IMG/VR virus record: IMGVR_UViG_2713896905_000004
Location: 1 to 64,000 of that record
Origin: a virus
Lineage: Duplodnaviria > Heunggongvirae > Uroviricota > Caudoviricetes
Length of the DNA stretch: 64,000 nt
Strand: one strand, 5' to 3'
The notes beneath the pieces were generated by a model, which made no database searches, was not told where the DNA came from, and saw only the letters and a program-made list of their open reading frames with translations. How positions within the stretch are numbered: the first letter of the stretch is position 1; the number at the start of each line of letters is the position of its first letter. The translations under genes and the position numbers were made by a program. Below are positions 11,901 through 13,213 of the stretch, in pieces.

Positions 11901-12347
11901 GCCAGTGGGCGTGCCGTATTGTCTCAGGAACAGGATGGCATCAAGTCGCACACCCACAGTGCCAGCGCATCAAATACTGACCTCGGTACTAAAACGACCA
12001 GCTCATTTGATTACGGGACAAAAACGGTCAGCACGTTTAACCACGGTACAAAAACGACAAACAATACAGGAGCGCATACGCATACTGTCGGTGGTCGTTA
12101 CGGTGGTGACTCCATCGGGGGTAAACAACGCGTACAGGTATCAGGAACCAACCAGGTGTCAAGCTCTGCCGGAGCACATGCCCATACTGTCGATATTGGT
12201 CAGCATAACCACACCGTAGGTATTGGTGCCCATGCGCACACTGTGGCATTGGGTGCGCACGGACATACCATCACGGTTAACGCTACTGGTAATGCGGAAA
12301 ACACCGTAAAAAACATTGCATATAACTATATTGTGAGGCTTGCATGA
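8916..12347 (+). CDS. S: tail fibre protein (P1 S / P2 gpH / lambda Stf family, ~1143 aa from ATG 8916)
   Basis: Central segment '[25 protein letters not shown]...[13 protein letters not shown]...[39 protein letters not shown]' is the conserved fibre shaft shared with P2 H; duplicated PTAP-GTN repeats; C-terminal His-rich GAHAHTV repeats like T4 gp37 tips. Confidence 0.9.
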
Positions 12348-13213
12348 TTAAGTTAATTCTTTCAGCGCCAGTACATGAAATGGCTGAAGCATTTAAGCGG
12401 GTATTCGCAAATGCAGATAATGTGGATGTTGTAGAAAAAACATTTGAAGCAATCCCGGAATTTGACTGCATGGTCAGTGCGGCAAACAGTTTCGGGCTAA
12501 TGGATGGCGGCGTTGACGCTGCCATTACTGCATTCTTTGGTACTCAGTTACAGACACGTGTTCAGAATCATATTCTTCGTGAATATCTTGGTGAGCAGCC
12601 TGTAGGCACTGCATTTGTTATTGAAACGGGGGATAACAACCATCCCTGGCTGGTACATGCGCCAACAATGCGCGTTCCGCTGACCATTGACGGAACAGAC
12701 GCTGTATATAACGCCACGTGGGCTGCTTTACTTGCCATCTTTCAGCACAATAAAAATGCAACGACAGACAGGAAAATAAAGACGGTGGTATTCCCTGCAA
12801 TGGGGGCCGGATGTGGTCAGGTGCCGTTTGAAAGTGTTGCCCGGCAGATGAAGCAGGCATGGGATAACTTTAATAAAAAAACAGAAGCAATTAACTGGGA
12901 ATACGCACACTCCCGCCAGTTGGCAGTATTTAATACATGCGCGTACTGCCCGGGTACTCCTGTTTGTCGTTATGCGGATATTAAATATATTGGACTTGGC
13001 GATTACCGGACGTATTGCTTACGGTCGGGGCAGGTATGCATTAATCCTGAACATCAGGTTGATGACGTGCTGACTAATAATCGTTCTCGCCCGGGGGCGC
13101 ATATGCATCAGATTAATCCGGTAAAATCCGTAGGTAATATTGCCATTGGCGCACACAGCCACGGAAGGAATATCACCATTGGTGCTCATTCCCATACCCC
13201 ACATAAACAATAA
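12344..13213 (+). CDS. macro-domain (ADP-ribose-binding/hydrolase-like) protein with tail-fibre-tip-like His-repeat C-terminus (289 aa)
   Basis: Motifs '[18 protein letters not shown]', '[21 protein letters not shown]', '[14 protein letters not shown]' fit the macro-domain pattern; C-terminus '[26 protein letters not shown]'; ATG overlaps S stop. Confidence 0.7.

Follow-up and report, generated by a model that had tools for sequence, protein, structure and literature searches.

Why a gene for a predicted ADP-ribose-binding protein should lie between a phage tail-fibre gene and the gene for the fibre's assembly chaperone is the question raised by a locus in the IMG/VR virus record IMGVR_UViG_2713896905_000004, of which positions 1 to 64,000 were analysed (the window). 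Macrodomains are universal erasers and readers of ADP-ribose, and ADP-ribose chemistry underlies Thoeris, DarTG, CmdTAC and the Sir2 and TIR NADases. To our knowledge, the T4 protein AdfM is the only phage macrodomain with a proven role in counter-defence. The gene considered here (12344..13213, plus strand) encodes a protein of 289 amino acids (aa) that is identical to WP_059221985.1, for which the Prokaryotic Genome Annotation Pipeline (PGAP) already gives the product name 'macro domain-containing protein', and that belongs to PHROG 2613 ('unknown function'; E=1e-136). The surrounding region is 100% identical in p2RM9973 and other plasmids of Escherichia albertii, while about 60% of it can be aligned to P1, P7 and their relatives, with about 96% identity there; by this resemblance the window is a P1-like plasmid prophage of E. 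albertii. The answer favoured here is that the gene encodes an accessory Macro2-type enzyme with a role in counter-defence against NAD-derived immunity, a reading that is held tentatively and that we consider plausible but somewhat short of probable.

The open reading frame starts with an ATG (12344-12346) that overlaps the TGA (12345-12347) of the upstream fibre gene in the sequence GCATGA, and its location between the fibre and tail-fibre assembly genes, as described in a first-pass annotation of the sequence, was confirmed. The fibre gene (8916..12347, plus strand) matches Pfam Phage_fiber_2, Gp34_trimer and Collar and is named 'phage tail protein' by PGAP in p2RM9973. Its last codons take part in the coupling junction (12335..12347, plus strand), in which a GAGG Shine-Dalgarno sequence (12335-12338) is placed five nucleotides 5' of the macro ATG, within the conserved ...IVRLA codons of the fibre gene. 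Downstream, a spacing of 24 nt separates the macro gene from the Tfa/U-like tail-fibre assembly gene tfa (13238..13816, plus strand, from the PGAP start), which has a GAGG of its own (13229-13232), matches Pfam Caudo_TAP (E=9.5e-32) and PHROG 105, and encodes a Tfa 64% identical to that of STYP1, a phage without the macro gene. A sequence scan detected neither a promoter-like nor a terminator-like site between the fibre, macro and tfa genes. The macro gene was also considered as an autonomous moron with its own promoter, which was rejected since there is no promoter-like site upstream and there are no terminators. The anatomy of the junction, with its start/stop overlap, shows a gene that would be expressed late, off the fibre message, through translational coupling, as had been expected for a late fibre operon.

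The first 199 residues (12344..12940, plus strand) constitute a Macro2-type (Ymx7-like) macro domain that includes an N-terminal beta-alpha extension. The initial proposal of a macro domain is borne out by Pfam Macro (PF01661), which matches residues 44-169 across its full profile (1-118) with 70 bits against a cut-off of 22 (E=2.2e-19), and the motifs quoted in favour of the proposal are present. Alignment to TTHA0132 identifies a first ligand loop, N48...D54-G-G-V-D58 (12485..12517, plus strand), with counterparts of the NAAN Asn and the GGGVD Asp, and a second (phosphate) loop, G154-A-G-C-G158 (12803..12817, plus strand), which aligns with the GTGVGG loop of TTHA0132; N48, D58 and the second loop are intact. 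The residues of the first loop are invariant among close homologues, and in a set of 68 family members N48, D54, G56 and D58 are at least 90% conserved and G158 is found in 68 of 68 sequences. The ratio of nonsynonymous to synonymous polymorphism (pN/pS) of the macro core is 0.15-0.24, which points to strong purifying selection across Escherichia, Salmonella, Erwinia, Citrobacter and Enterobacter. The structure prediction suggested as a check was performed with AlphaFold2 (AF2): a model that used 15 close homologues was poor, with a predicted local distance difference test score (pLDDT) of 58, and the prediction was redone with 68 diverse family members, yielding a three-layer alpha/beta/alpha macro fold with a pLDDT of about 97 over residues 1-199.

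The class of this macro domain differs from the one first suggested. Yeast Ymx7 (YMR087W, PDB 1njr) is clearly the top match in three independent searches, including a Foldseek search with the predicted structure (E=1e-11) and a search of PDB sequences with a profile of 52 non-enteric family members, which aligns with Ymx7 from the first beta-strand on (E=4e-16). Ymx7 is thus closest both by sequence profile and by fold, N-terminal extension included. Pfam Macro_2 (PF14519) scores 22.5 bits on the window protein, below its cut-off of 27, and many close homologues have a precomputed PF14519 match. These results show a conserved and intact macrodomain that is predicted to be of the Macro2 type. 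Ymx7, the sole studied Macro2 member, converts ADP-ribose-1''-phosphate to ADP-ribose and is reported to be without activity in the removal of mono-ADP-ribose (PMC6397177). It is about 21% identical to the phage protein, is a eukaryotic housekeeping protein and lacks the Cys- and His-containing extension described below, and the activity of the phage protein is a prediction.

The MacroD, YmdB or DarG type proposed by the first-pass annotation was not upheld, given that the NCBIfam equivalogs for these proteins score 13-52 bits against cut-offs of 200-315. Membership in MacroD/YmdB was rejected on the scores of NF001664 (33.8 vs 200) and NF001660 (22.7 vs 271) and on the position of the catalytic His of MacroD, which is Thr62 in the window protein and invariant as Thr in its clade. 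Membership in DarG was rejected because NF048014 scores 12.6 bits against 250 and because the neighbours are a fibre gene and tfa, with no darT; the DarG model of PADLOC matches merely 39 residues (E=0.0035). In common with MacroD/YmdB and DarG, the window protein has the macro fold and the loop residues Asn (NAAN) and Asp (GGGVD), but it differs from them in Thr62, in the lack of a DarT-binding domain and in the lack of a DarT neighbour. T4 AdfM (Tk.4), a proven anti-DarTG2 factor (bioRxiv 10.1101/2025.11.20.689424), is comparable as a phage-encoded, stand-alone macrodomain with demonstrated counter-defence, but is early, DarG-like and without a tail. Close kinship to AdfM was rejected as well, with a BLASTP E-value of 0.006 over 67 aa and an hhalign probability of 22%.

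The order fibre tip, macro gene and tfa, with a 4-nt ATGA overlap, recurs in the P2-like phages Chuche and SEN4/5, in Gifsy-1, where the macro gene follows a lambdoid side tail fibre, and in P1-like plasmids. The same junction is found in about 80 IMG/VR prophage loci (given below with handles in L), whose fibres have unrelated N-terminal parts and the last 50-60 residues in common; the overlap is present at all loci with a correct macro start and upstream sequence, leaving out L054 and L074, in which the start was mis-parsed, and five loci without upstream sequence. The family comprises 2258 matches at 90% clustering, from Escherichia, Salmonella, Citrobacter, Enterobacter and Erwinia, and the macro gene is present in 38 plasmids and in 128 of 5426 complete Escherichia coli genomes, where most copies belong to chromosomal prophages. 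Among phage records, 6 contain the macro clade, compared with 390 that contain this fibre tip (~1.5%), the latter being T4-like, P1-like, P2-like and lambdoid; P1, P7 and other P1-like phage records are not among the carriers, in agreement with the earlier remark that P1 is not known to have such a gene.

The comparison with phages that have the tip and lack the macro gene defines the insertion. In the P2-like phage STYP1, the tip is 91.5% identical and tfa follows directly after the fibre stop, and the same arrangement occurs in the P1-like Ro157c2YLVW, with a tip 75% identical; the junction of both reads GCATAATGAC, with an immediate tfa start that uses the same GAGG. In T4, gene 38 follows directly after gene 37, with no macro gene between them. 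Since near-identical tips run into tfa without the macro gene, the gene is accessory and dispensable for tip assembly, and an essential assembly factor was rejected on the same grounds. Identity as a tail chaperone or structural 'phage tail protein' was likewise rejected, as these tips lead directly into tfa and the protein has no match to a tail family in Pfam. The compared junctions indicate that the macro gene has been inserted precisely between fibre and tfa, and the gene orders show that it has evidently travelled with the cassette of fibre tip and tfa into phages of three architectures. PHROG 2613, represented by Gifsy-1 STM2588.1n and SEN5_19, is the window gene's own family, with the same order of fibre, macro and tfa genes and no meaningful difference. 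The family is listed with an unknown function, and in some records its members have the wrong name 'phage tail protein'; the Gifsy-1 record already notes a Macro domain. Full-text literature searches retrieved no paper on the position of the gene at the junction, on its assignment to Macro2 or on its needle-like tail, and a survey of viral NAD and ADP-ribose genes mentions only in a general way that Macro genes occur in morphogenesis clusters (PMC9503650).

What follows the macro domain resembles the neighbouring fibre. The fibre is chimeric: its N-terminal part resembles P1 S and contains Phage_fiber_2 repeats, residues 699-797 are a trimerisation domain of the T4 gp34 type, and a collar domain precedes the gp37-type tip. 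Its last 204 aa match the T4 gp37 tip (PDB 2xgf) with E=4.4e-78 and about 65% identity to T4 gp37, and a motif scan detected five HxH needle repeats (12069..12266, plus strand; GAHTH, GAHAH, GQHNH, GAHAH and GAHGH), which align to the metal-binding needle of T4 gp37 and of which the last four have a 9-residue period. In 2xgf, the HxH motifs of three chains coordinate metal ions along the needle, and each metal site of a gp37-type needle is occupied by six His of the three fibre chains. With these sites already filled, there is no obvious place for the tail of the macro protein.

That extension begins with a Cys-rich module (residues 199-232; 12938..13039, plus strand) containing C202, C208, C225 and C232 in a pattern conserved in the alignment of close homologues (YCP-x4-C ... 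YIGxGDYRTxC-x6-C), for which AF2 predicts a beta-hairpin at residues 211-225 (pLDDT 60-77). It ends in a His-x-His tail (residues 251-289; 13094..13210, plus strand) with three GAHxH motifs, at nt 13094, 13148 and 13181; residues 241-289 are unstructured in the AF2 monomer, with a pLDDT below 50 for the HxH tail. No Pfam or NCBIfam family matches the Cys module or the tail, and a search for an independent domain elsewhere, using the C-terminal 95 aa alone, returned just two short fragments. The mimicry of the fibre's His repeats noted at the outset is real in the sense of motif and period and not as a recent copy. When all six frames of the 64-kb window are scanned, GAHxH occurs four times in the fibre tip, three times in the macro tail and nowhere else, so that the likeness is far beyond chance. 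The window tail has no blastn similarity to the DNA of its own fibre, and the best match of a tail to a needle at any related locus is 78-80% over 44-50 nt; the resemblance is therefore either old or convergent. The idea that the tail arose through a recent duplication at the 3' end of the fibre gene was rejected for this window on the same evidence, the similarity seen at other loci being weak and old. The adjacent fibre tip is a true homologue of the T4 gp37 tip and the macro tail has the same GAHxH, but the tail contains 0-4 repeats, lacks a collar, a head domain and the conserved end of the fibre, and has no recent DNA identity to the fibre.

Across the family, the number of HxH motifs per tail varies within this range, and some tail variants match the 9-residue period of the fibre needle, e.g. 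GAHTHTIDTGAHNHTIQTG. In 54 unique tails, 103 HxH motifs are present compared to 31 +/- 4.7 in composition-preserving shuffles, an approximately threefold excess that is indicative and not a formal probability because the tail sequences are related; at least one HxH is retained in 48 of these 54. The pN/pS of the tail is 0.30 in the window's clade, 0.47 in a 274-aa clade and 0.89 in a 300-aa clade, while the value of a 269-aa group is unreliable since two tail types were aligned gap-free. These sequence comparisons show a Cys4 and HxH extension that is fast-evolving and imitates the needle motif. Co-variation of tail type with fibre needle type was not detected beyond linkage, and one tail type was found with different needles. 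Tail-less variants of 203 aa are located at the same junction in L084, L123, L124 and L133, which are P2-like and P1-like contigs, and a 253-aa variant in L079 has kept the Cys motif and lacks the His. The HxH tail is thus probably functional but dispensable for the gene's position. The 203-aa variant ends in ...SSYNGVL, overlaps the fibre stop by 4 nt and has a stop that itself overlaps the tfa start, the macro gene being at about 3998-4609 in L123, L124 and L133. In L082, the macro open reading frame (300 aa) contains a distinct, longer Cys- and His-rich extension, ...ECRCGRHNHYIYTGAHTHS...GCHDHRDFISTGAHHHGVKK, with four HxH; it ends as in the tails of Erwinia and Enterobacter (GVKK) and might in part be a frameshift artefact.

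Beyond this clade, an exhaustive search of 50%-identity representatives identified 2386 relatives, the majority of which stand alone and have about 200 aa. Among these stand-alone proteins, homologues from phages, where their genes occupy early or accessory regions, from bacteria and from eukaryotes share 40-64% identity with the core, and its invariant ligand-binding residues are found in them too. The nearest of them, at 64% identity, has a ParB-like gene on one side and a methyltransferase gene on the other, in a phage region upstream of the terminase gene; three distant non-phage homologues are on contigs of 1-4 kb with uninformative gene context. Homologues named 'tail protein' or 'tail assembly-like' in the jumbo Klebsiella phage FBKp24 (L090, 4911-5510), the Pseudomonas phage Noxifer (L091, 4938-5585) and the Rhizobium phage P106B (L092, 4905-5453) have early or hypothetical genes around them, and that of FBKp24 is located about 2 kb from an RNA 2'-phosphotransferase gene. 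PHROG 14717 ('tail protein') matches the macro core only, and the label 'phage tail protein' is probably an annotation artefact both on the family and on the jumbo-phage homologues, to which it was probably transferred from the enterobacterial prophage clade. The PHROG 2613 family is additionally found beside Gp10_C/collar-type fibre tips in two unrelated groups of metagenomic phages: in L108 and L112 the macro gene is directly 3' of a Gp10_C/collar-type fibre, and in L105 (1-2342), L113 (1-1550) and L130 (324-2997) it is placed beside several short alternative tips (Gp10_C, HxH) on both strands, together with a tyrosine recombinase. This adjacency could represent a functional link with the tip type, or a cargo hot spot between tail-fibre and lysis genes. 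The arrangement of the latter three loci resembles shufflon-type fibre-tip switching, and they contain an adjacent open reading frame of 154-213 aa, possibly for a chaperone, with a weak DUF4376 match. A macro core of about 50% identity is also present in the apparently eukaryotic multidomain proteins P0126, P0132 and P0142, where its partners are WD40-like repeats, a dual-specificity-phosphatase-like C-terminus or an acidic low-complexity N-terminus; this conservation between phages and eukaryotes is unusually high.

In the favoured reading, the macro gene, inserted exactly between the stop of a gp37-type fibre tip and the start of tfa, would be synthesised late from the fibre message by translational coupling. 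Fibre tip and tfa form a cassette that is swapped among tailed phages to change host range, and since they are exchanged in this way, the macro gene would be carried along. Its core would bind, and most likely hydrolyse, a soluble 1''-substituted ADP-ribose derivative, e.g. ADP-ribose-1''-phosphate, so that an NAD-derived immune product of the host may be broken down or sequestered late in infection, when structural proteins build up. A soluble ligand of this kind is suggested by the class membership, by the high identity to cytoplasmic homologues and by a published survey, which concluded that the main targets of phage Macro proteins are soluble derivatives of ADP-ribose (PMC9503650). The extension would be a metal-binding module, probably oligomerising as a miniature needle and perhaps aided by Tfa; that the tail drives oligomerisation is a guess, as the AF2 monomer gives the tail very low confidence. 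In this scheme the extension would not be required for the position of the gene, nor the macro protein for building the fibre. Several points weigh against the proposed counter-defence role. The substrate is deduced from the family and the targeted defence is putative, T4 AdfM is related at the superfamily level only, and the role given to the HxH tail is speculative. Late timing would be odd for counter-defence, unless late proteins trigger the defence or the enzyme reaches the next cell. In addition, the site inside the fibre-chaperone pair, and not after it, hints at a direct link to fibre biology, and the recurrence of the family by Gp10_C-type tips in unrelated phages likewise hints at more than a passenger.

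A virion-borne or fibre-tip-docked enzyme, as already suggested in the first-pass annotation, would insert its HxH tail into the gp37-type needle, or bind the needle or a tip-retained Tfa with it, and would act at the cell surface or enter the next host. Docking would account for the GAHxH shared with the fibre and for the exact needle period of some variants, for a gene located between fibre and tfa with start/stop overlap at all related loci parsed, and for the renewed adjacency to collar/Gp10_C-type tips, and packaging of phage Macro genes from morphogenesis clusters has been proposed in the survey (PMC9503650). Set against this are the tail-less or His-less variants at the same junction (L084, L123, L124, L133 and L079), the absence of co-variation in one tail type that occurs with different needles, and a macro protein without a signal peptide. 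Moreover, the metal sites of the gp37 needle (2xgf) are saturated by the three fibre chains, fibre tips stay outside the cell, where no ADP-ribose substrate is known, and the core strongly resembles that of cytoplasmic stand-alone homologues. Docking is accordingly regarded as unlikely, and for the last of these reasons, together with the shared invariant ligand residues, so is the receptor-modifying role once attached to it. A similarly small probability is given to housekeeping in RNA repair or NAD metabolism, in which the enzyme would clear ADP-ribose-1''-phosphate, or the product of a 1'',2''-cyclic phosphate pathway, left by a Tpt1/KptA-type 2'-phosphotransferase, with no direct link to immunity signalling. 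The sole known activity of the Macro2/Ymx7 class is that of an ADP-ribose-1''-phosphate phosphatase (PMC6397177), a survey of jumbo phages ties Macro to KptA/2H RNA repair (PMC7824862), and the FBKp24 homologue has its 2'-phosphotransferase neighbour; however, the P1-, P2- and lambda-like carriers have no RNA ligase, KptA or 2H genes beside the macro gene, and housekeeping leaves both the junction position and the His/Cys tail unexplained.

Somewhat less probable than either is a trigger-antidote relation, in which the gp37-type tip and its chaperone would be sensed late in infection by an NAD-consuming defence and the macro enzyme, encoded between these two triggers, would hydrolyse or sponge the 1''-substituted ADP-ribose signal, with the HxH tail localising it to the fibre or Tfa, or acting as a decoy for the sensor. 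The analogy is to type II Thoeris, which uses histidine-ADP-ribose as its signal and is reported to be triggered by the side tail fibre and chaperone of Pseudomonas N4-like phages (bioRxiv 10.64898/2026.06.04.730250). If such a relation were true, the recurrence of macro genes beside collar/Gp10_C-type tips would reflect a general trigger-antidote linkage. Two further explanations are given only a slim chance each. A helper in fibre maturation, folding or metal-loading the HxH needle via its Cys/His tail or stripping an ADP-ribose adduct from fibre or chaperone, would be expected between the fibre and chaperone genes, and its Cys4 and HxH extension looks metal-binding beside a metal-containing, gp37-type needle; but near-identical tips assemble with Tfa alone (STYP1, Ro157c2YLVW, T4), only ~1.5% of phage records with the tip have the gene, strict conservation is seen in the macro core but not in the tail, which is often shortened or missing, and no ADP-ribosylation of fibres is known. 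Finally, the gene might be a neutral or selfish passenger whose His repeats are the decaying relic of a fibre fragment captured at insertion. The tail pN/pS of up to 0.89 in one clade, the variable length and occasional loss of the tail and the weak and old resemblance between the DNA of some tails and that of fibre needles would fit this explanation, whereas the strong purifying selection on the macro core across five genera, the threefold excess of the HxH arrangement over shuffles and the tail pN/pS of 0.30 in the window's own clade do not.

The DNA downstream of tfa is also unusual. A low-GC island (window positions 13600-15950; 30-38% GC compared to about 47% around it) contains minus-strand genes for a family 4 (GT4) glycosyltransferase (13871..15019), a hexapeptide-repeat acetyltransferase (15006..15557) and a small protein resembling helix-turn-helix proteins (15582..15911), the first of which is named 'lipopolysaccharide N-acetylglucosaminyltransferase' by PGAP. 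The island occupies the place of the alternative fibre tip (Sv'/U') and cin of P1, and no inverted repeats were found between 8 and 17 kb of the window. It seems that fibre-tip inversion has been lost and that genes for possible modification of lipopolysaccharide, with lysogenic conversion or superinfection exclusion as conceivable outcomes, have been gained. At the same place, Ro157c2YLVW has an O-acetyltransferase gene and a remnant of U'.

The macro gene family is common: about 2% of complete E. coli genomes have a member, as do many Salmonella, with Gifsy-1 of the model strain LT2 as one example, and its prophage carriers are P1-, P2- and lambda-like. Among macrodomain classes, its own, Macro2, has been studied least, and its position inside a host-range cassette is unusually intimate. 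If the protein serves as an anti-defence enzyme, the spread of host-range modules would bring immune evasion along with receptor specificity; if its His-repeat tail couples it to the fibre or the chaperone, this would represent a new mode of cargo attachment to a tail fibre. Since Chuche, SEN4/5 and Gifsy-1 are tractable, both ideas are directly testable.

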